A stretch of 64,000 bases of DNA from a virus: the IMG/VR virus record IMGVR_UViG_3300029915_000731, positions 1 through 64,000 of that record; one strand, 5' to 3'. This document shows, piece by piece, positions 342 to 34,071 of this stretch (positions are counted from its first letter, which is position 1; every line of letters starts with the position of its first letter). Below the pieces are notes generated by a model. That model was not told the DNA's origin. It worked only from the letters and a program-made list of their open reading frames with translations, and searched no databases. Both the position numbers and the translations under genes were made by a program.

Positions 342-692
342 TTAATAGTGGATAAACTGGTCTCGGTCTGCTTGCGTAATGGTCTTCAAACAGGCTGAAC
401 ACCTTTCATACCGCTCAGTGTCCTCTCCATCATGAGGGCCGTAGCTGGTTGCAACATGTCCACACTCATTCTGGTGTTTGCGAAGGTAGGCAGTGCGGCG
501 GATATAATTCAGGTGAACGTAGTCGCCGTAGCCGTCGCCGCCCCCATACGCAGGGGGTAGAGACGTAGCGGCCTCACCTTCCGCCGCCGCCAGCAGCTTC
601 ATCTTCTCGTACACGTCCGACTTCTGCTTTTGCAAGTCTTTGATACGACCGCTTAGTTCAGCGTCCGCCGCTTTAAGCTGCTTCATTGTCAT
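342..692 (-). CDS. Hypothetical protein (N-terminal coiled coil, C-terminal Cys/His motif)
   Basis: 116-aa ORF in the minus-strand gene run. Confidence 0.65.
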   Translation of the reverse strand: MTMKQLKAADAELSGRIKDLQKQKSDVYEKMKLLAAAEGEAATSLPPAYGGGDGYGDYVHLNYIRRTAYLRKHQNECGHVATSYGPHDGEDTERYERCSACLKTITQADRDQFIHY

Positions 693-870
693 GTTTCACC
701 TTTCGATGGGTGCGGCCACGTAGGTCACAGCCCAGTCCATCTCGCACTTTGTCTTCAACCTGAGCCACGAGTTCATTGACTCCGCTGCTCCACAGAAGCT
801 TTTCTCCAACGTGAAAAAACAGGCGATACTATAGCCGCCCCACATCTTTCATCATATGTGCTCCTTATTT

Positions 871-1245
871 TCACTTTATCTTCAATCCACAGCGGCTGAG
901 GTGCTTTCGAATTTCAGCGAACTCCACGGGCTTGTCGAAGACAGCGATTTTTCGTTTGAGAGTCCAGAACCGTCGATTGGCTTCGCGACTATCAGCAGTC
1001 ATCATCGCCACTTTCTGACCGGGGTGCTCGGTGAGAATTGCGTCGAGCATCCTCACCCCATTCATCCGGGGCATATCGAAGTCGGAGAGCACATAGTCAA
1101 ATGGTTGGGCGCGGAAGAGTTCTAAACCCTCGCGCCCATCGCCAGCCTCCACGACATCAATCGGGGCTCCCCGGACGGCCTTCTCCAGAGCTTCTCTGAG
1201 GTAGGCGAGGTTCATCCGGTCATCATCCACGATAAGAACCCTCAC
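871..1245 (-). CDS. Stand-alone response-regulator receiver (CheY-like)
   Basis: VLIVDDD, LSDFDMPRMNG (phospho-Asp), MMTA, DKP motifs. Confidence 0.9.
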   Translation of the reverse strand: MRVLIVDDDRMNLAYLREALEKAVRGAPIDVVEAGDGREGLELFRAQPFDYVLSDFDMPRMNGVRMLDAILTEHPGQKVAMMTADSREANRRFWTLKRKIAVFDKPVEFAEIRKHLSRCGLKIK

Positions 1246-1463
1246 TTACGCCTCTTCGTTCCAAATCGGATGTAGTCACGACCACGTTGGGTGATGCTAT
1301 ACCAGAGGTTGTGACATGCGCCGGTGCTTAAGAACCCATGCCTGACCAGAGACCGTGCGGTCTGAAGGGGGTGACCCTTTACCCAGACCCTCCCGTGAAG
1401 GCTCCTGTCAATGGCGTCTAGCAAACAGAACTGGGCAAGCGACAACTTCGGCCAGTCCCTCAC
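1242..1463 (-). CDS. Hypothetical protein, possible winged helix
   Basis: Overlapping start/stop with neighbours; SITQRGR wing-like motif. Confidence 0.55.
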   Translation of the reverse strand: MRDWPKLSLAQFCLLDAIDRSLHGRVWVKGHPLQTARSLVRHGFLSTGACHNLWYSITQRGRDYIRFGTKRRK

Positions 1464-1795
1464 GGGAGTTTCACGCGGGAGACCGTTCCAGTGCTAACAA
1501 CGTCTTCAAGGAATCCCTGACCTACCGGGCTCCCGAGCCACTGGATGACGGTGGCCGCGACGGTCGCCTCTTGCTGCGTCAGTTTGTAATGCTCACTCTT
1601 CTCCTGCCCATGTAGGAGGTAGCCCAGAGTCATTTCAGCACGCCTTGCCCACGCTTCAGCGAATGCGGCCTCAGCCGGATTCGAGGGGAGCCGATAGGAG
1701 CACAGACCCACGTGTTCAATCGGAGCTGGCTCCAAGTTTGTATTGAGTAGCTCACCCAACGATTCTGGTTTGTTTCCAAATTGGCTAGGCATCAT
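1460..1795 (-). CDS. Hypothetical phage protein
   Basis: 111-aa ORF with ATVIQWLGSPVG motif. Confidence 0.65.
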   Translation of the reverse strand: MMPSQFGNKPESLGELLNTNLEPAPIEHVGLCSYRLPSNPAEAAFAEAWARRAEMTLGYLLHGQEKSEHYKLTQQEATVAATVIQWLGSPVGQGFLEDVVSTGTVSRVKLP

Positions 1796-3233: not shown

Positions 3234-3320
3234 TGGTGCCAGAGACGGGACTCGAACCCGTATGAGTTTAACCTCGGAGGTTTTTGAGACCTCTGCGTAT
3301 ACCAATTCCACCACTCTGGC
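3234..3320 (-). tRNA. trnL: tRNA-Leu(CAA)
   Basis: Anticodon arm GAGGT-CTCAAAA-ACCTC, long variable arm, CCA end. Confidence 0.95.
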
Positions 3321-3326
3321 AAATTT

Positions 3327-3414
3327 TGGTACCCGTGACAGGAGTCGAACCTGCAAGACCCGGAGGTCTATGAGGGCTTAAACCTCATGTGTACGCCAAT
3401 ACCACCACACGGGC
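3327..3414 (-). tRNA. trnL: tRNA-Leu(TAA)
   Basis: TGAGG-TTTAAGC-CCTCA, CCA end. Confidence 0.93.
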
Positions 3415-3424
3415 ACATCTAAAC

Positions 3425-3515
3425 TGGTCGGCGCGGGGAGACTTGAACTCCCAGTTGACCTTGCGGTACGGCACGCCCTGAACGTGCTGTGTCTGCCGAA
3501 TTCCACCACGCGCCG
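3425..3515 (-). tRNA. trnL: tRNA-Leu(CAG)
   Basis: GCACG-TTCAGGG-CGTGC, CCA end. Confidence 0.93.
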
Positions 3516-3527
3516 AAAAATCTAAAA

Positions 3528-3615
3528 TGGTACCGGGTGAGAGACTCGAACTCTCATGAAGCTTGCGCCTCGCTAGCTCCTAAGGCTAGGGTGTCTGCCA
3601 TTCCACCAACCCGGC
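3528..3615 (-). tRNA. trnL: tRNA-Leu(TAG)
   Basis: CTAGC-CTTAGGA-GCTAG, CCA end. Confidence 0.95.
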
Positions 3616-3627
3616 AAATCTAAACTT

Positions 3628-3719
3628 TGGTACCCCTGACAGGACTCGAACCTGCAATGTTTACCGCTTGGGTATCGCGTCTTAAGCGCGACGTGTCTCG
3701 CCAGTTTCACCACAGGGGC
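3628..3719 (-). tRNA. trnL: tRNA-Leu(TAA), second copy
   Basis: TCGCG-CTTAAGA-CGCGA, CCA end. Confidence 0.92.
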
Positions 3720-3731
3720 ACATCTAAACTT

Positions 3732-3822
3732 TGGTCGGCTCGATGAGATTCGAACTCACAATTGTCCTTTCGGAACACATGGACCTCAACCATGCGCGTC
3801 TCGCCAATTTCGCCACAAGCCG
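3732..3822 (-). tRNA. trnL: tRNA-Leu(GAG)
   Basis: CATGG-TTGAGGT-CCATG, CCA end. Confidence 0.92.
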
Positions 3823-3845
3823 ATACTTTACTTCAATACTGAGTG

Positions 3846-4094
3846 TTACCTCTCAACATGCCCCCTCTGAGAAAGCGCCCGGTCGATAAACTGGTCTGCA
3901 ACCTGTTCTCGGTACGCCGGGGACTCAAACAAACTTTTAGTGTCCATGGTGTAGTAGGTATTGTAGCTCTTCTTCCCCACCTTGTCGGATACCGCCACTT
4001 TCAGTATTGGAAAGCAGCCTCCGACTTGGACGGTGACATCGTCTCGCGTCACCTTTACCTTGCCATTCTTTAATACCTTAACACCCTTATCCAT
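3846..4094 (-). CDS. Hypothetical protein inside tRNA operon 1
   Basis: 82-aa ORF co-oriented with the tRNAs. Confidence 0.55.
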   Translation of the reverse strand: MDKGVKVLKNGKVKVTRDDVTVQVGGCFPILKVAVSDKVGKKSYNTYYTMDTKSLFESPAYREQVADQFIDRALSQRGHVER

Positions 4095-4114
4095 TGTTTC
4101 AACCTGTTACCCTC

Positions 4115-4270
4115 TCACAGAATACTCACGCCTCCACGTCCAGCTATATGCTTTATCGTTTGGCCACAGTTTGGACAACACTTACGACTGACTCCTATGA
4201 CTCCTATAGGGGCTAGAAACGCTGCTAGAAGCCCCGAGATAACGAAAATGATAACCACTGTCAAAACCAT
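4115..4270 (-). CDS. Small membrane protein with CPNCG motif (51 aa)
   Basis: GAGGT SD; MVLTVVIIFVISGLLAAFLAPIGVIGVSRKCCPNCGQ...; below ORF-track cutoff. Confidence 0.55.
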   Translation of the reverse strand: MVLTVVIIFVISGLLAAFLAPIGVIGVSRKCCPNCGQTIKHIAGRGGVSIL

Positions 4271-4286
4271 AAATACCTCTCGGAAT

Positions 4287-4351
4287 CGGTGGGGGTGAGG
4301 AAATTGCTTCCCAGTGCTCCGCCTATTTGGGGTTATTCAGCGGACACCCCC
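4287..4351 (-). ncRNA. Short tRNA-like element (acceptor-like stem, one internal arm, T-like arm)
   Basis: GGGGGTG...CACCCCC-ACCG; CCGC/GCGG arm; GGAA-GCAAT-TTCC. Confidence 0.4.
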
Positions 4352-4355
4352 GAAC

Positions 4356-4462
4356 TGGTGGACTGTGGTGGCGTTCGAGCCACGCTATCGCTTCATCTCA
4401 GGACACGGGAAAGTCACCCTAGCACCTGCCTTTACGATGTCTTCACCTAACTTACACAGCCC
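4356..4462 (-). ncRNA. Ala-identity tRNA-like RNA resembling a tmRNA tRNA-like domain
   Basis: GGGCTGT/ACAGTCC-ACCA with G3:U70; T-like arm; long interrupted helix instead of anticodon arm. Confidence 0.6.
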
Positions 4463-4469
4463 AAAACTT

Positions 4470-4556
4470 TGGTCGGCTTGGGGGGACTTGAACCCCCACT
4501 CCCTTGCGAGAACCAGCCCCTCAAGCTGGCGCGTCTGCGAATTTCGCCACAAGCCG
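4470..4556 (-). tRNA. trnL: tRNA-Leu(GAG), second copy
   Basis: CCAGC-TTGAGGG-GCTGG, CCA end. Confidence 0.95.
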
Positions 4557-4587
4557 ATAACTTACATTAACCTAATACTACAAAATC

Positions 4588-4625
4588 TGGTGGGCTGGGA
4601 AGGATTAGTTATACCTCACATCCCC
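4588..4625 (-). pseudogene. 3' fragment of a tRNA-Tyr-like gene
   Basis: ...CCTTCCCAGCCCACCA resembles the 3' end of the neighbouring tRNA-Tyr; no 5' half. Confidence 0.4.
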
Positions 4626-4634
4626 TTACGAAAG

Positions 4635-4722
4635 TGCGCCGTGATGGATTCGAACCACCGATGTTACTCTTAAAGAGGACTGGGTTACGGCCAGTCGCTT
4701 TCGTCCACTCAGCCAACGACGC
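4635..4722 (-). tRNA. trnY: tRNA-Tyr(GTA), atypical (C33, no encoded CCA)
   Basis: ACTGG-CCGTAAC-CCAGT; GGTTCGAATCC T arm; long variable arm. Confidence 0.8.
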
Positions 4723-4735
4723 ATATCTAAAAATT

Positions 4736-4826
4736 TGGTGGGTAGGGAGGGATTCGAACCCCCAGCGTGCCCAAAGGGCATCCAGATTTACAGTCTGGCG
4801 CGGCCAACCGTATCCACGTCCTACCC
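4736..4826 (-). tRNA. trnY: tRNA-Tyr(GTA)
   Basis: CCAGA-CTGTAAA-TCTGG, CCA end. Confidence 0.93.
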
Positions 4827-28885: not shown

Positions 28886-28960
28886 TGGAGCGGGAGACGG
28901 GAATCGAACCCGCGACATTCAGCTTGGGAAGCTGACGTTCTACCACTGAACTACTCCCGC
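28886..28960 (-). tRNA. trnG: tRNA-Gly(CCC)
   Basis: TCAGC-TTCCCAA-GCTGA, U73-CCA. Confidence 0.97.
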
Positions 28961-28997
28961 TCACTTCGTATGAATCTCTCTTCGACCGTACAAACTT

Positions 28998-29162
28998 TTA
29001 TTTTACAATAGAGATGATGTCACGGCCTTCTTCACCGACCACGTAGGCTGTGATCGAAGATTGATCGAACTTCCGATAGCAGCGCGGGGTGTCCCCGTCG
29101 ATGTGAATGCGGACAGTAGACGCCTGTGACATCAGGAATCCCACGTTCTCCTTCTGCATCAT
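28998..29162 (-). CDS. Small hypothetical protein (54 aa)
   Basis: MMQKENVGFLMSQ...IISIVK; follows tandem GTATTAG motifs. Confidence 0.45.
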   Translation of the reverse strand: MMQKENVGFLMSQASTVRIHIDGDTPRCYRKFDQSSITAYVVGEEGRDIISIVK

Positions 29163-29198
29163 CTCTAATACTGCTAATACTGCTGTTCTACTATTTAC

Positions 29199-29274
29199 TG
29201 GTAGGGTTAGTGGGGTTCGAACCCACGTTGGAAGATTGAAAGTCTTCTATCCTGACCGATTAGATGATAACCCC
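29199..29274 (-). tRNA. trnE: tRNA-Glu(TTC)
   Basis: GAAGA-CTTTCAA-TCTTC, CCA. Confidence 0.92.
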
Positions 29275-29280
29275 AAAAAA

Positions 29281-29358
29281 TGGTAGGGCCAGTGAGATTC
29301 GAACTCACGATTTCCTCCTTGAGAGGGAGGCGGCTTAAGCCAACTGGCCTATGACCCC
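29281..29358 (-). tRNA. trnE: tRNA-Glu(CTC)
   Basis: CCTCC-CTCTCAA-GGAGG, CCA. Confidence 0.92.
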
Positions 29359-29375
29359 ACATTACATCTAAAATT

Positions 29376-29443
29376 TGGTAGCGGTTTCCGACGCCCGCAC
29401 GGTTCCTCCCAGCAGCTACGGGGAGCCCGTTGTTACACCGCTA
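29376..29443 (-). ncRNA. Degenerate tRNA-like element ending in ACCA
   Basis: AGCGGT/ACCGCT-ACCA with one long internal hairpin. Confidence 0.4.
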
Positions 29444-29472
29444 GCTGTTCTCTAGTTCCAAGCGGGAGTCAT

Positions 29473-29579
29473 TTTCAATCAGACCCCGAGACTTTCCGGG
29501 GATGTAACGCCTGTGCGTAATCTCACTGTCCCCGATAGTTTCTTTCAATCGGACCCCCGATACCTTCCGGGGATGTAAC
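29473..29579 (-). CRISPR. Two-repeat mini CRISPR array
   Basis: Repeats 29473-29508 and 29543-29579 (GTTACATCCCCGGAARGTMTCGGGGTCYGATTGAAA), 34-nt spacer. Confidence 0.75.
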
Positions 29580-29594
29580 GCCTGTGCGTAATCT

Positions 29595-29670
29595 TGGTAC
29601 TCTCGGTTGGATTCGAACCGACGATTTCCTCCGTGTCGAGGAGGCGATTTAGCCACTAATCTACGAGAGC
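29595..29670 (-). tRNA. trnV: tRNA-Val(GAC), atypical C33
   Basis: CCTCC-TCGACAC-GGAGG, CCA. Confidence 0.88.
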
Positions 29671-29676
29671 AAAACT

Positions 29677-30351
29677 TTAGTACAGTAAGTCTAGTTCACC
29701 CTTCAATATTCTCTCTGGGTACTGAACCATCTTACCATTGCGATGGTCTTTTGCGAAGCCCTTAATGAAGTTGTAGGTGCGAATCTTATCGCCCCGGCCA
29801 CCTCCACCTAACTGACTCTGCCGCTCAATACCGTAAGTGGTCTCTGCTTCCTTATCCTTCGCCAGCTTCACTTTCTGAGCTAGGATGGCAAGTGCGTCTT
29901 CCTTGTTACGGTGTTGGTCTCGACCATTGATAAAGACCGACAATCCAGTGGGCTTGTGTACGGCTCTCACCGCACTGTCGGTGGTGTTCTGATGCTGCCC
30001 ACCTTTACCGTGCCCCCGCTGAGTCTTGACTTCAATCTCAGAATCGGGAAGTTTGTCCTGATACTTCTCAGGAGGTAATGGCAATACAGCTACCGAGACC
30101 ACTGATGTGTGCCGCCGTCCAGCCCTGTCATTATCAGGGCACCGCTGGACAACGTGCTTTCCAGCTTCCCGGCGAAATAGTTCCCATACGTCTTGCCCAG
30201 AGAACTTCATTACTGCGTGTCCAAAACTACTGGTGAGTATCTCGGTCTTGAGTTTCTTGCGGAGCCCATACTGTGCGTAAGCACTGAGCATGTCGTCCAC
30301 GAAACCCTTCGAGTCATCCCCACCTTCACCGAAGTGAATTTCGAGAATCAA
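29677..30351 (-). CDS. Class-1 peptide chain release factor homolog lacking domain 1; true start likely 30417/30421 via stop bypass
   Basis: ILEIHFGEGG, EAGKHVVQRCP, GRRHTS, GKGGQHQNTTDSAVR, KIRTYNF. Confidence 0.9.
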   Translation of the reverse strand: MILEIHFGEGGDDSKGFVDDMLSAYAQYGLRKKLKTEILTSSFGHAVMKFSGQDVWELFRREAGKHVVQRCPDNDRAGRRHTSVVSVAVLPLPPEKYQDKLPDSEIEVKTQRGHGKGGQHQNTTDSAVRAVHKPTGLSVFINGRDQHRNKEDALAILAQKVKLAKDKEAETTYGIERQSQLGGGGRGDKIRTYNFIKGFAKDHRNGKMVQYPERILKGELDLLY

Positions 30352-30469
30352 ATCTGAGGATGGTCTAAAGACAGTTCCCTCGGACTGTATTCACCGCGTT
30401 GCTTTTCTGTTTTTCATACATAGCATCCTCCTCAGGATTGAATTAAATCTTCTTCCTTCCAGCCTCTTA

Positions 30470-30634
30470 TCACCTCGACTGCTGTCGCTCGTGGCTCAGG
30501 TAAGAATAACTTGCCATGAGAAAACCAATTGGATCATCTCCAGCACCAACATCACCATCAAACAGTTCTACCAAGAACTTCGCTACTCTCGCTTCGTCAG
30601 GCGAGTATGGATTGGTCTCCATGTTACGTGTCAT
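30470..30634 (-). CDS. Small hypothetical protein (54 aa)
   Basis: AAGGTGAG SD; MTRNMETNPYSPDEARVAKFL...GAGDDPIGFL. Confidence 0.55.
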   Translation of the reverse strand: MTRNMETNPYSPDEARVAKFLVELFDGDVGAGDDPIGFLMASYSYLSHERQQSR

Positions 30635-30668
30635 TTCTCACCTTAGAACAGTAAATCTACTCCAAAAC

Positions 30669-30744
30669 TGGTGGAGCTGGAGAGGCTTGAACTCTCGACC
30701 TTTTCCATGCCATGGAAACGCGCTCCCAACTGCGCCACAGCCCC
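30669..30744 (-). tRNA. trnA: tRNA-Ala(GGC)
   Basis: TTTCC-ATGGCAT-GGAAA; G3:U70. Confidence 0.96.
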
Positions 30745-30751
30745 ACAACTT

Positions 30752-30855
30752 CGTGTGATGCAGTGCCGGAATCGAACCGACCTTGTGGCCGACAGAATCA
30801 TCCAAGCCATCTTATGGATTCAAGAGAACCCAGTTCTCTTCATCCTGCACACACG
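30752..30855 (-). ncRNA. tRNA-like RNA with canonical T arm but closed termini
   Basis: GTCGG-TTCGATT-CCGGC; 8-bp AAGAGAAC/GTTCTCTT arm; no CCA. Confidence 0.55.
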
Positions 30856-30863
30856 CTAAAAAT

Positions 30864-30942
30864 TGGCGGTTCCAGCGGGATTTGAACCCGCGATCTTCAC
30901 CTTGACAGGGTGACGGGGACGGCCAGACTCCCCTATGAAACC
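30864..30942 (-). tRNA. trnD: tRNA-Asp(GTC)
   Basis: TCACC-CTGTCAA-GGTGA; G73-CCA. Confidence 0.95.
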
Positions 30943-30950
30943 AAAACTTT

Positions 30951-31026
30951 TGGTGGAGCTAGTCGGGATCGAACCGACGACCTCATCGTTGCGAACGATG
31001 CGCTCTCCCAACTGAGCTATAGCCCC
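30951..31026 (-). tRNA. trnA: tRNA-Ala(CGC)
   Basis: CATCG-TTCGCAA-CGATG; G3:U70. Confidence 0.97.
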
Positions 31027-31042
31027 ATCCCCCTTTATGCGC

Positions 31043-31223
31043 GACCGTAAGGGCTCGTGACAGAGTTGACCTAGCGGCGGGGGTACCGTTTCATGCCTCT
31101 CCCAGTGTCACCCAAGAGACTACAAGCGGCGGAGGTACGGTAGCATGTCAAAACCAGAGAGCGAGTCTTTCTCCATCTGTTATGTGTTTACTACTCTCGC
31201 CCTACCGTCACAACCCATTGGTC
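31043..31223 (-). ncRNA. Unassigned multi-stem structured RNA
   Basis: Nested pairings GACC/GGTC, GGGTTGTGAC/GTCACGAGCCC, GGTAG/CTACC, GCGAG/CTCGC, GTACC/GGTAC. Confidence 0.5.
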
Positions 31224-31254
31224 AGTTTCTACTCACTGGGTCGGACTTAAACTT

Positions 31255-31291
31255 TTTCAATTGAACCCCGAGACCTTCCGGGGATAACAAC
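31255..31291 (-). CRISPR. Solitary CRISPR-like repeat, variant 2
   Basis: GTTGTTATCCCCGGAAGGTCTCGGGGTTCAATTGAAA. Confidence 0.65.
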
Positions 31292-31299
31292 CACTTATA

Positions 31300-31380
31300 T
31301 AAGATGTGAGGATGAGCTTCTCGTCTCACCCATAGCGGGTTCTTATGTTGCCGCCGTCCTGATTGAACGATCACACCTTA
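31300..31380 (-). ncRNA. Cloverleaf-like RNA without anticodon loop or CCA
   Basis: TAAGGTGTGA/TCACATCTTA terminal stem enclosing three arms. Confidence 0.45.
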
Positions 31381-31384
31381 AACT

Positions 31385-31461
31385 TGGAGCACTAGGAGGA
31401 ACTCGAATCCTCGCATTAACGGTTTTGCAGACCGTCGCCTTACCATCTTGGCCACTAGTGC
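31385..31461 (-). tRNA. trnC: tRNA-Cys(GCA)
   Basis: ACGGT-CTGCAAA-ACCGT; U73-CCA. Confidence 0.92.
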
Positions 31462-31466
31462 TAAAC

Positions 31467-31545
<79 letters not shown>

Positions 31546-31603
31546 TGAGGGGGTAAATTTATAAAGCGGAAAGTCTACGTCAGACCCCCATCCGCTGAAT
31601 TAC

Positions 31604-31988
31604 TGTGCCAAACCGATAAGCGGAGTTCTGTTCCCCTCGCGGGGTGACAATCATTCGTCTACGAATACTGTTACCAGTACCCTCTAGCCCTCAACCCGCC
31701 GATTCATAACGGTACGAGCAGTACCTGTCGGCCTATTTGAAGTTGCATCGCGTAGAGATTGCCCGTTTCACCCGGCGTCCGGTTTCCCGGCTGACCGACT
31801 CGTCTCTGTTGCTCTAATCGTCGCAAGGGGGATTGGTTGGGAATTTACGGCTGTTACACCGCTGTCACGTTCGACATGAGAAACGCTTCCAACCACACCT
31901 TACGCTAGGCCGTTAGCCTATACGCTGCTCTTTGATGCTCCGACTTTCCTCCCCCACTTGCGTGGCGGCGATTGTCTGGTTTGGCACA
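31604..31988 (-). ncRNA. rnpB: RNase P RNA (bacterial type A)
   Basis: P1 TGTGCCAAACC/GGTTTGGCACA; GAGGAAAGTCGGAGC pairing with ACAGAACTCCGCTTA (P4); GGGCAATCTCTAC, TGCAAC, GGTAAC. Confidence 0.95.
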
Positions 31989-32019
31989 ATTCTGTATTGA
32001 AGCCGGGTCGGGACTTACA

Positions 32020-32361
32020 TCAATCCACCTTGATGCGTTCTACTGCCACGCAGCGGAGGTGGTCTCGCACCTCTTGAGAGAACTCGTTGAACATCGTGCC
32101 CTTATCCAACCAGTGCAAGATGGCCGCCCAAGTCTCCTCTTCAGGGGTCCACTGCCCTTCAAGACCGTAACACGAGCAGTGTGAACCGTGAACTGAAAAC
32201 AGCTTACCATCCTTCTCGAATAGGACAAAAGCCGAACCCTCGTAACACTCGTAGCGATACACAGCCGCGTAGATTACAGCGTCCTTCAATTCGTCCTCGC
32301 CGATTTGGAACTCCCGGCGGATGTCTTCAGCTTCATTGAACTGCTCCTCGAATACATTCAT
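32020..32361 (-). CDS. Conserved phage hypothetical protein (start revised to MNVFEE)
   Basis: AGGAG SD; YEGSAFVLF..DGKLF.VHGSHCSCYGLEGQW. Confidence 0.75.
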   Translation of the reverse strand: MNVFEEQFNEAEDIRREFQIGEDELKDAVIYAAVYRYECYEGSAFVLFEKDGKLFSVHGSHCSCYGLEGQWTPEEETWAAILHWLDKGTMFNEFSQEVRDHLRCVAVERIKVD

Positions 32362-32447
32362 TGTGTTTTCTCCTTGTGAAATCACATTCACGGGTGGAGT
32401 CGCGCAATGAAGTTCGATATGACAGCCCAACCCGACTTCAAAACTTT

Positions 32448-32526
32448 TGGTGGACCTCCAGAGATTCGAACTCTGCTGATATTTTCGGTGCAAGCGAAAT
32501 AAACACTCCTAGCATTTCCGAGGCCC
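32448..32526 (-). tRNA. trnA: tRNA-Ala(TGC), divergent D arm
   Basis: TTTCG-CTTGCAC-CGAAA; G3:U70; ACCA. Confidence 0.85.
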
Positions 32527-32568
32527 ACATTAAACTTAAATTTTCAAAGACCGTCAAGCTCTAAACTT

Positions 32569-32605
32569 TTTCAATTGAACCCCGAGACCTTCCGGGGATA
32601 ACAAC
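32569..32605 (-). CRISPR. Solitary CRISPR-like repeat, variant 2
   Basis: Identical to 31255-31291 including short flanks. Confidence 0.65.
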
Positions 32606-32711
32606 CACTTATAAGCTTGATTCGTCGGGTGTCAAGCTTATTAGCTTGTCCCGGTGTCAACCTAATACTGTTGACATTACCTTTGTCAACGTTACTCTGT
32701 TGACGAAACTC

Positions 32712-32786
32712 TGGAGCGGGAGACGGGAATCGAACCCGCGACCAACAGCTTGGAAGGCTGAGACTCTACCACTGAGTTACTCCCGC
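32712..32786 (-). tRNA. trnG: tRNA-Gly(TCC)
   Basis: CAGC-CTTCCAA-GCTG. Confidence 0.97.
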
Positions 32787-32810
32787 ATCTACCCCCTTCA
32801 TAAAATCTCT

Positions 32811-32903
32811 GAGGAGCCTACAGGACACTACCTGTAGTCATTGGCGGTAATCGGGTCTCCCCTTCCCGCTAGGTAAGCCGAACTTACGTTTCGGCCACTC
32901 CTC
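32811..32903 (-). ncRNA. Unassigned four-way-junction RNA
   Basis: GAGGAG/CTCCTC; GCCGAA/TTCGGC; GCGG..GGG-GAGA-CCC..CCGC; CTACAGG/CCTGTAG. Confidence 0.55.
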
Positions 32904-32909
32904 AAACTT

Positions 32910-32984
32910 TGGTACTCGATAAAGGATTCGAACCTTCGACTTCCCACTTGTAAGGAGGGCACTCTACCGCTGAGTTAATCGAGC
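32910..32984 (-). tRNA. trnV: tRNA-Val(TAC)
   Basis: CCCTC-CTTACAA-GTGGG; CCA. Confidence 0.93.
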
Positions 32985-33012
32985 AAAAGTAAAGCCACCT
33001 TAAGGGTGGCCT
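32985..33012 (-). terminator. Attenuator terminator of tRNA operon 2
   Basis: AGGCCACC-CTTAA-GGTGGCTT-TACTTTT directly before tRNA-Val. Confidence 0.8.
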
Positions 33013-33035
33013 CGTTAGGTTCGGATTGATTCTGC

Positions 33036-33152
33036 TTATCCGATTCCTCCCGAGGACATGGTACCCTCATCTCCGCCTTCGCAATCAGCGGCCACGCCCG
33101 CGGCGACTGCTGCGGCGCTGACGGCTACGATGCTGGCGATGGTGTTGGTCAT
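33036..33152 (-). CDS. Val/Ala/Gly/Asp/Cys/Glu leader peptide MTNTIASIVAVSAAAVAAGVAADCEGGDEGTMSSGGIG
   Basis: GAGGA SD; lies between promoter and terminator; codons match downstream tRNAs. Confidence 0.85.
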   Translation of the reverse strand: MTNTIASIVAVSAAAVAAGVAADCEGGDEGTMSSGGIG

Positions 33153-33170
33153 GTTCTTCCTCACACTTTT

Positions 33171-33200
33171 ATAATACCCAGTATTTCTGGTTTTTGTCAA
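33171..33200 (-). promoter_or_regulatory. sigma70-type promoter of tRNA operon 2
   Basis: TTGACA-N18-TATTAT. Confidence 0.8.
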
Positions 33201-33243
33201 TTCATTTCTGAATTTATTTTTAAACCCCATCATCTTTTCAATT

Positions 33244-33434
33244 TTTCAATCAGACCCCGAGACTTTCCGGGGATGTAACTAAATCTTGGGGTCGGGTAGA
33301 CCGTTGGTTTCAATTTTCAATGTTTCAATCGAACCCCGAGACTTCCCGGGGATGTAACGTGTTTTTGGGCGACCACGATACGCAGGCCCCTTTCAATCTT
33401 TCAATCGGACCCCGATACCTTCCGGGGATGTAAC
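33244..33434 (-). CRISPR. Three-repeat mini CRISPR array
   Basis: 36-nt repeats at 33244-33279, 33323-33358, 33399-33434; 43- and 40-nt spacers. Confidence 0.8.
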
Positions 33435-33441
33435 CTGTAGC

Positions 33442-34071
33442 CTACACAATACCCAGTTCAGCGGGAGATGTCAACTCAGTTCTGAACGTTGCTTTCAATT
33501 GAGAAACCCCACGATAAATGTCGGATTTGACGGCTGTGAGACTCTTGCCCATCATCTCCGCCAGTTCTTTTCCTGTATACCCCTCAATCTGGCTCAGAGC
33601 CACCACCGTGCGATACTTGGGTGGCAGCTTGAGCAGGGCACGGTGGATATCCTCGCGTGCCGGGAAGGACTCTTGCTGTCGGTCTGGGACGCTAAGCTGA
33701 ATCCTACCCCCGGTGAATGATTCCCTTCCCTCTTCATAAGGAATCTGCTCATCAAGTGAGATGTCGAAGACCCGCTTCCGGTACTTGCGAAGGTGTTGGA
33801 GTCCCTCGTTTACTGCGATGCGGTGAGCCCACGTAACAAAACTGGACTCGAAATTGAATCGCTTCAAGTTTAGGTACACCTTCAGCCACGTGTTGGCCGC
33901 AATGTCACAGGCTAGGTCGGGCTGCTCTACCACTCCCCTAGCTGCCTTGAACACACGGTCATCATAGCGTCGGTAGAGTTTACCGAACGCCTCCTCATCA
34001 CCCTTCTTTGCACGCCGAATGAGACTCAACACTTCCTTGTCGTCAAACATTCGTACCTTCTTCTTAACCAT
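33442..34071 (-). CDS. ECF-type sigma-70 factor
   Basis: GDEEAFGKLY, F.TW.HRIAVN (region 2), LPPKYR...EGYTGKELAEMMG (region 4). Confidence 0.9.
   Translation of the reverse strand: MVKKKVRMFDDKEVLSLIRRAKKGDEEAFGKLYRRYDDRVFKAARGVVEQPDLACDIAANTWLKVYLNLKRFNFESSFVTWAHRIAVNEGLQHLRKYRKRVFDISLDEQIPYEEGRESFTGGRIQLSVPDRQQESFPAREDIHRALLKLPPKYRTVVALSQIEGYTGKELAEMMGKSLTAVKSDIYRGVSQLKATFRTELTSPAELGIV

Follow-up and report, generated by a model that had tools for sequence, protein, structure and literature searches.

Seven cas-less copies of a type I-G-family CRISPR repeat beside the tRNA and RNase P RNA genes of a huge phage, probable RNA mimics of a bacterial CRISPR system

CRISPR repeats in viruses without cas genes are already known in four forms: solitary repeat units and Racrs, mini-arrays, Cracr arrays and the compact arrays of huge phages. 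Racrs, Cracrs and mini-arrays have recently come to be seen as a means of counter-defence. Racrs and viral solitary repeat units were described by Camara-Wilpert et al. 2023 (PMC10651486), where, in the parts compared here, a promoter directly upstream is a hallmark of a Racr and a supplementary table lists type I-G candidates from IMG/VR. Type I-G viral repeats are so far catalogue candidates only, none of them characterised. Viral mini-arrays, which act in inter-virus conflicts (Medvedeva et al. 2019; Faure et al. 2019; reviewed in PMC11656645), match the repeats of their hosts. Cracr arrays encode viral crRNA-like regulators of types V-A, I-F, I-E, I-C and I-B, which act as competitors for Cas proteins, are able to shut down cas promoters and need at least nine PAM-proximal matches to a cas or toxin promoter (preprint 10.1101/2024.10.29.618823). 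CRISPR systems that have no adaptation genes are common in huge phages, and phages lacking both interference and adaptation genes but carrying host-like repeats have been reported (Al-Shayeb et al. 2020, PMC7162821). In the type I-G system studied by Shangguan et al. 2022 (PMC9638904), Csb2 cuts a 36-nt repeat 4 nt 3' of its hairpin, leaves an 8-nt handle and remains bound to the hairpin after cutting.

Here we describe cas-less repeats in the IMG/VR virus record IMGVR_UViG_3300029915_000731. The record has 100,340 bases and a CheckV completeness of 32%; we therefore take it to be a fragment of a huge phage with a full genome of roughly 300 kb. Its first 64,000 nucleotides, the stretch that was analysed, are called the window, and coordinates without a contig name are window positions. 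We found seven copies of one repeat within 4 kb, and this repeat also stands beside a type I-G cas gene on a separate metagenome contig. On these grounds we take the phage repeats to be probable RNA mimics, by which a bacterial CRISPR system would be hijacked or jammed.

The locus resembles Racrs, as far as these are presented in the parts of PMC10651486 compared, in that its repeat mimics stand in a virus genome, are not cas-linked and are similar to the repeat of a cas-linked array; it has a strong promoter directly upstream, its hairpin and processing site are conserved, and the action that we propose for it would likewise be competition for Cas6 and Cas7. Unlike Racrs, it packs seven copies, arrays as well as single units, into 4 kb inside a tRNA and RNase P RNA operon. 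The phage repeat did not turn up in the portion of that paper's supplementary table that was compared, and duplicated handles were not found in the Racr literature compared (PMC10651486). A further difference concerns RacrIF1, described in the same source as having no 5' handle and hence as excluding Cas5 and Cas8: the phage units between repeats keep the handle. One- or two-spacer arrays in a cas-less virus, with a repeat matching a cas-linked array, are shared with viral mini-arrays; unlike in these, no spacer matched related viruses in limited searches, and several 'spacers' are local duplicates or too short. Multiplexed repeat-spacer units in a phage recall Cracr arrays, but the repeat is of type I-G, which is not among the described Cracr types. 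The phage is also a tRNA-rich huge phage with short arrays like those of Al-Shayeb et al. (PMC7162821), whose arrays, however, have a median of six repeats and some spacers with identified targets, whereas here scattered singles, doubles and one triple occur with duplicated handles. Known type I-G repeats (PMC9638904) are matched in length (36-37 nt), in cut-site layout and, on the metagenome contig, in having csb2 beside the array; the differences lie in the stem (five to seven pairs here, seven in the studied system), in a Csb2 subfamily of about 420 aa and in phage copies without cas neighbours. What is new is the recurrent duplication of the handle, the packing of seven units into 4 kb and their position within a tRNA and RNase P RNA operon.

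Seven repeat copies and their surroundings

The core pattern of the repeat occurs seven times in the window, always on the minus strand and between 29.47 and 33.43 kb, and in none of 100 dinucleotide-preserving shuffles. Across the whole 100-kb record, a covariance model built from 26 copies recovered these seven and gave no further match at E up to 10. Every copy has the same layout: 7 nt, a stem-loop, 4 nt, and ATTGAAA plus one base.

Three of the copies form array A (33244-33434, minus strand), in which the repeats follow each other at periods of 76 and 79 nt. They open with GTTACAT and continue with a CCCCG/CGGGG stem-loop, four bases and ATTGAAA. The initial annotation of this DNA had described an array of three 36-nt repeats with such a hairpin directly after a sigma gene. 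The repeats agree with its consensus letter for letter, each has a stem of five to seven pairs, and 7 nt separate the sigma stop codon from the first repeat. It had missed that the array belongs to a set of seven copies and has a promoter of its own. The stuttered handles that it had noticed are real as well. Along the minus strand, repeat A1 (33399-33434; 36 nt, or 37 with base 33398; 60.5 bits with the covariance model) is followed by an extra handle, G + ATTGAAA (33391-33398, the heptamer at 33391-33397), and by the 32-nt unique part of spacer 1 (33359-33390), which has no other match in related loci. Repeat A2 (33323-33358), with a stem of seven pairs, is followed by two extra handles, C + ATTGAAA + ATTGAAA (33308-33322; copies at 33315-33321 and 33308-33314), and by the 28-nt unique part of spacer 2 (33280-33307). 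Repeat A3 (33244-33279), which shares a loop and linker variant with the second repeat of array B (below), is followed by A + ATTGAAA (33236-33243, the heptamer at 33236-33242). A2 and A3 also matched the covariance model.

A sigma-70-type promoter (TTGACA, 17 nt, TATTGT; 33446-33474, minus strand; 10 of 12 matches in the promoter scan) sits in the 3' end of the sigma gene and ends 12 nt before A1, with a predicted transcript start about 4-5 nt ahead of that repeat. A promoter followed a few bases on by a repeat is also found in two related contigs (L007 and L009). The gene itself (33442-34071, minus strand) encodes an ECF-type sigma factor (Pfam Sigma70_r2 and r4; SigW/ECF-like matches in NCBIfam), and a search of IMG/VR returned no relatives of it. 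No terminator was found between array A and a second promoter (TTGACA, 18 nt, TATTAT; 33171-33200, minus strand), which belongs to a family also present in the related phage contig L008 and drives the tRNA operon together with a short leader ORF and a terminator-like hairpin ahead of it. The predicted promoter within 250 bp upstream that serves as a Racr criterion is thus present for array A, and the copies in the tRNA operon are served by the operon promoter. The region of the second promoter (32985-33200, minus strand) combines a strong promoter, a Val/Ala/Gly-rich short ORF and, directly against tRNA-Val, a terminator-like hairpin of nine pairs with its T-run; promoter and hairpin were confirmed, and the arrangement is, to judge from the sequence, a leader-peptide attenuator layout.

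The remaining four copies lie in the operon. Solitary unit 1 (32568-32604, minus strand; 52.7 bits) has a variant 5' end but keeps hairpin, linker and handle, and stands 42 nt upstream of tRNA-Ala. Solitary unit 2 (31254-31290, minus strand), between tRNA-Cys and tRNA-Ala, is identical to unit 1 and has the same short flanks. Array B (29472-29579, minus strand) follows tRNA-Val directly and consists of two repeats separated by a 34-nt 'spacer', the end of which is a copy of the 15 nt preceding its first repeat; this self match indicates that array B arose by tandem duplication of a single unit. Between tRNA-Gly and solitary unit 1, four clustered TTGACA motifs overlap two inverted repeats (32620-32700, minus strand), and the last of them, with TATAAG 16 nt on, could be a promoter starting at this unit.

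Within the 4 kb that contain all seven repeats there are, besides, 12 tRNA genes, a release-factor gene and an RNase P RNA of bacterial type, all oriented like the repeats. The RNase P RNA is full-length and of bacterial class A (31601-31987, minus strand; 182 bits; model positions 1-367) and lies among the tRNA genes. The window has 21 tRNA genes in two clusters (3234-4826 and 28886-32984, minus strand), the first with seven tRNA-Leu and two tRNA-Tyr genes and the second with genes for Val, Gly, Ala, Cys, Asp and Glu; a tRNA with the anticodon CTA in a related contig (L008:4827-4901, L078) is a possible amber suppressor. The release-factor gene, with PCRF and RF-1 domains (29677-30351, minus strand), lies within the tRNA operon. 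It was considered as a clue to the host and rejected, being of a viral family whose nearest protein clusters are mostly viral. A PHROGs search revealed no anti-CRISPR-like neighbours.

The repeat is not confined to this record. Two more huge-phage fragments carry five and three copies, and a scan of JGI metagenomes found it in about a dozen short contigs, most of the Ga0302xxx series. By their sequence, most of these contigs look like pieces of similar phages: the phage-like ones are tRNA-rich and have the promoter family in common with the record, and otherwise share no sequence with it. In two related phage contigs a single repeat stands right before a start codon or ribosome-binding site (L076:2643-2679 and L008:5606-5642); if Csb2 cut there, the mRNA would be left almost leaderless or with a short leader.

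A cas-linked counterpart beside csb2

The initial annotation had reported no cas genes in the window, and for class 1 cas genes this holds. None was found among the 25 families listed per library when the 76 ORFs of the whole record were searched with PADLOC and NCBIfam, and the nearby cas genes of a canonical array were accordingly not found in the 100-kb record. Nor was Csb2 found in this record, about one third of the phage genome, and a search of the two other huge-phage fragments with Pfam Cas_GSU0054 (Csb2) gave nothing either (about 147 kb in all with the record). The CRISPR-related matches in the record, among those listed, are a generic DinG helicase, a DEDDh exonuclease and TnpB outside the window. 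An intact tnpB gene lies at G000:86411-87406 of the record (plus strand; 185.7 bits against NF040570), with a short remnant of a TnpB C terminus at G000:95744-95851. PADLOC matches to 'Cas12f' and 'Csx1' all fall on the intact tnpB gene.

A cas-linked array with the same repeat was found on L090, a metagenome contig of 1,485 bases. Its four repeats are 94-100% identical to the phage copies and are separated by unique spacers of 36, 29 and 29 nt without stutter. The array lies about 120 nt downstream of csb2, with a leader between, and csb2 is the only cas gene seen on the 1.5-kb contig, where Cas7, Cas8g and Cas3 did not appear. The C-terminal half of the csb2 product scores 50 bits against TIGR02165 (cut-off 45) and also matches Pfam PF09609. 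On L090 the gene (369-1483, minus strand) is split by a frameshift; intact versions of 421 aa exist elsewhere (P0006 and P0042). P0006 is 100% identical to the L090 product over the part they share and reaches 64.9 bits with TIGR02165; members of its cluster occur on contigs of up to 36 kb, and P0042 is encoded on a 36-kb contig. This subfamily of about 420 aa is some 100 aa shorter than proteins labelled Csb2 and 27-31% identical to them. Its relatives are mostly labelled bacterial, most often Acidobacteriota, by automatic cluster labels that serve as a lead only, and one relative lies on a 41-kb NCBI contig. No Csb2 relative was found in IMG/VR by a search that reaches close relatives only, and a sequence search of the PDB gave nothing; its absence from 285 genomes of one arbitrarily chosen phylum is uninformative. 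The series and sample numbers of L090 resemble those of the related phage pieces. The L090 leader was suspected to be homologous to the tail of array A, but this idea was rejected, the alignment score lying in the range of shuffled sequences.

The hairpin, the following 4 nt and the 8-nt handle of the phage repeats fit the published cut site of Csb2 (PMC9638904). The initial annotation had recognised a repeat type of Cas6-processed class 1 systems, and the L090 repeats beside csb2, together with the Csb2-type layout, bear this out. It had also held that the absence of a similar repeat from any cas-linked array would speak against its reading; the search was made, and the L090 array by csb2 is such an array. 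Of the host and subtype that it proposed to seek with the repeat, the type I-G family was reached through L090, while the GTDB genomes yielded no array. The link to csb2 and the layout of the cut site thus narrow the CRISPR reading to the type I-G family.

The exact core pattern is present in no array among GTDB representative genomes, where its matches were chance-like and set aside: they fall in a parB coding sequence and in an element dispersed within a Bacteroidia MAG. The Bacteroidia element, of about 150 nt and found on three contigs (L010:5415-5445, L011:65-95 and L013:65-95), contains a module of hairpin, 4-nt linker and ATTGAAAG that looks like a solitary CRISPR repeat. When the pattern was relaxed, IMG/VR yielded about 60 isolated matches attributable to chance as well as the two related phage records, and a BLAST search of array A against GenBank phages and plasmids gave nothing relevant.

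Handles, spacers and possible targets

Among the phage copies the first 7 nt and the eighth base of the handle drift, the latter being C in the internal L090 repeats, and the hairpin, linker and ATTGAAA are fixed, a constancy that is partly a consequence of the search pattern. A search for the hairpin only found no copy of it without the handle; in a related phage record the covariance model gave one weak, degenerate match that seemingly lacks the handle (G003:3776-3813). The stems fold with -9 to -12.5 kcal/mol, which is not unusual when compared with shuffles, and they have no covariation support because the stem never varies. The hairpin was also considered as an intrinsic terminator and rejected, since no T-run follows it on either strand.

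One or two extra copies of ATTGAAA follow about 11 of the 23 distinct phage copies and are absent from the cas-linked array. They sit immediately 3' of repeats, with the exception of a lone double in L076 after a hairpin-like remnant. The periods of the stutter are 7-10 nt, the separating bases differ, and the copy number changes between close variants. The initial annotation had argued that stacked handles shorten the guide. The measured lengths do not agree with this: the unique parts in array A, 32 and 28 nt, are close to the L090 spacers of 29-36 nt. Because the unique parts already have the cas-linked length, the extra handles are better described as insertions that lengthen the inter-repeat RNA to 39-42 nt. 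The stutter is possibly functionless slippage, possibly a seed filler that makes loaded complexes inert, or possibly a set of extra sites for handle-recognising subunits. That the stutter serves as the -35 element of a promoter, or belongs to an ECF-type promoter (TGAAAC/CGT), was rejected, as inspection by eye revealed no consistent downstream -10 element across copies.

The segments between repeats are more irregular in the phages (11-50 nt) than in L090 (29-36 nt). Regular spacing with unique spacers of near-constant length, as in a canonical array, is not a property of the phage set; array A alone would pass as regularly spaced (39 and 42 nt, both unique). In four contigs (L007, L009, L074 and L080) one 33-nt spacer sequence is repeated, with a copy number of two or three depending on the assembly, the kind of variation that unequal crossing-over should produce. 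One locus is represented by two variants (L079 and L083), which have an internal spacer of 28 nt in one and 12 nt in the other, and their last spacer duplicates the sequence after the array. Searches for protospacers drew a blank in the 100-kb record, in related loci and, by BLAST, in GenBank phages and plasmids; in IMG/VR, 20-mers taken from three spacers of the window and one of L090 had no exact match. Spacers matching related viruses, as in mini-arrays, are therefore missing from the record, the related loci, the IMG/VR 20-mers and the GenBank phages, and the matches to other phages that the initial annotation had suggested looking for did not appear (exact first 20 nt against IMG/VR; BLAST against GenBank). 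Complementarity of the spacers to the 1.2 kb of L090 outside its array has a longest stretch of 6-10 nt, which is chance level.

These data bear on the possibility that the phage repeats form true guide arrays. The unique segments of 28-34 nt would then be guides with which the phage borrows host type I-G Cascade and Cas3 against competing phages, or represses host or cas genes in the manner of Cracr. Such a use would suit the two different array A spacers, whose unique parts match cas-linked spacers in length, and the retention of the handle in every copy, and cas-less huge phages whose repeats are host-like are on record (PMC7162821). We nevertheless consider it unlikely given the lack of protospacers in all the databases named above, the chance-level complementarity to L090, the duplicated or 12-nt spacers of related arrays and the second handle that occupies the seed position of several units. 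Duplicated and short spacers, the 11-50-nt range, the drift pattern of the repeats and the absence of protospacers in these searches argue that the repeats, and not the spacers, carry the function.

Decoy RNAs and their alternatives

RNA mimicry is suggested by seven cas-less copies together with the same repeat flanking a type I-G cas gene in L090. As to how the mimics would act, we hold with middling confidence that these cas-less copies of a type I-G-family repeat work as Racr-like decoy or competitor RNAs. Array A would be transcribed from its own strong sigma-70-type promoter, starting a few bases before the first repeat, and the other four copies would ride in the tRNA and RNase P RNA operon transcript. 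In an infected cell with a cognate type I-G system, Csb2, a Cas5-Cas6 fusion, would bind each hairpin, cut 4 nt downstream of it and stay bound, giving crRNA-like RNAs with the ATTGAAAN handle. These would soak up Csb2 and Cas7 and dilute the phage-targeting crRNAs of the host, by the mechanism of Racrs and non-targeting crRNAs. Of the two roles that the initial annotation had put forward, decoy crRNAs and silencing guides, both are plausible, and our preference for decoys has indirect grounds. We infer processing, Cas binding and inhibition of this kind from the repeats and their context, and we place the action mainly in decoy or competition because the 'spacers' look non-immune, with irregular lengths, local duplicates and no targets found in our searches. 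Speculatively, a duplicated handle in the place of the seed may render the complexes inert. Several observations count against decoys: the unique parts in array A are of normal guide length; the L090 array comes straight after csb2, and neither cas1, cas2 nor cas4 intervenes; no GTDB representative genome has the exact core pattern in an array; and the hairpin has neither covariation support nor an unusual folding energy.

The second of these would be expected if the phage encoded a type I-G-derived system without adaptation genes in its unsequenced two thirds and L090 were a piece of such a phage. There, csb2 is followed by a terminator-like hairpin and the array, the spacers are of uneven length, and the G+C content is 53%, compared with 51% for the phage; all other contigs with the repeat look phage-like, no GTDB genome has the repeat in an array, and CRISPR systems lacking adaptation genes are frequent in huge phages (PMC7162821). 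We regard a phage-encoded system as quite improbable all the same. No Csb2 was found in the three huge-phage fragments, about 147 kb in all, the full class 1 scan covering the record only, and IMG/VR holds no relative of Csb2 within reach of the search for close ones. The Csb2 subfamily is mostly labelled bacterial, with Acidobacteriota as the most frequent label and a lead only, and one member is on the 41-kb NCBI contig; moreover, the stutter is absent from the L090 array.

An elaboration of the decoy model, which we would call a long shot, is a natural 'tRNA-crRNA' production line, whose handle-filled seed mimics would load Cas proteins but never license cleavage. RNase P, RNase Z and the Csb2 of the host would release the units between tRNA genes as abundant mimics, in which a second or third ATTGAAAN handle deliberately occupies the seed position. 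This handle is common to many class 1 subtypes, and stacked handles might therefore sponge handle-binding subunits of several co-resident systems, those of type I-G being just one case.

A role outside CRISPR, with the repeats as RNA punctuation or stability elements or phage-protein sites in the tRNA operon, or else as neutral relics of recombination with host arrays, is very unlikely: although the seven copies are co-oriented with tRNA genes and within 4 kb of non-coding RNA genes, relatives also adjoin tRNA genes and some copies stand just before a ribosome-binding site or start codon, it would leave unexplained both the joint conservation of 4-nt linker, handle and hairpin in every copy and the near-identity to the cas-linked array, a phage would hardly entrust the maturation of its tRNAs to a defence nuclease that its host can do without, and neutral relics would not retain promoters or recur across several phage contigs.

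Overall, we suggest that the repeats are RNA mimics, with decoy or competitor action as the mechanism proposed. For type I-G viral repeats the locus provides a concrete pair of repeat and Csb2. It also presents a recurrent, unexplained architecture, in which one or two extra handles come after roughly half of the phage copies but after no cas-linked copy, and a setting in which putative anti-CRISPR RNAs would be co-expressed with a phage operon of tRNA and RNase P RNA genes. If the stutter is functional, it would show that the handle and seed region of a crRNA can disarm an effector, and it might help in the design of inert competitor RNAs.
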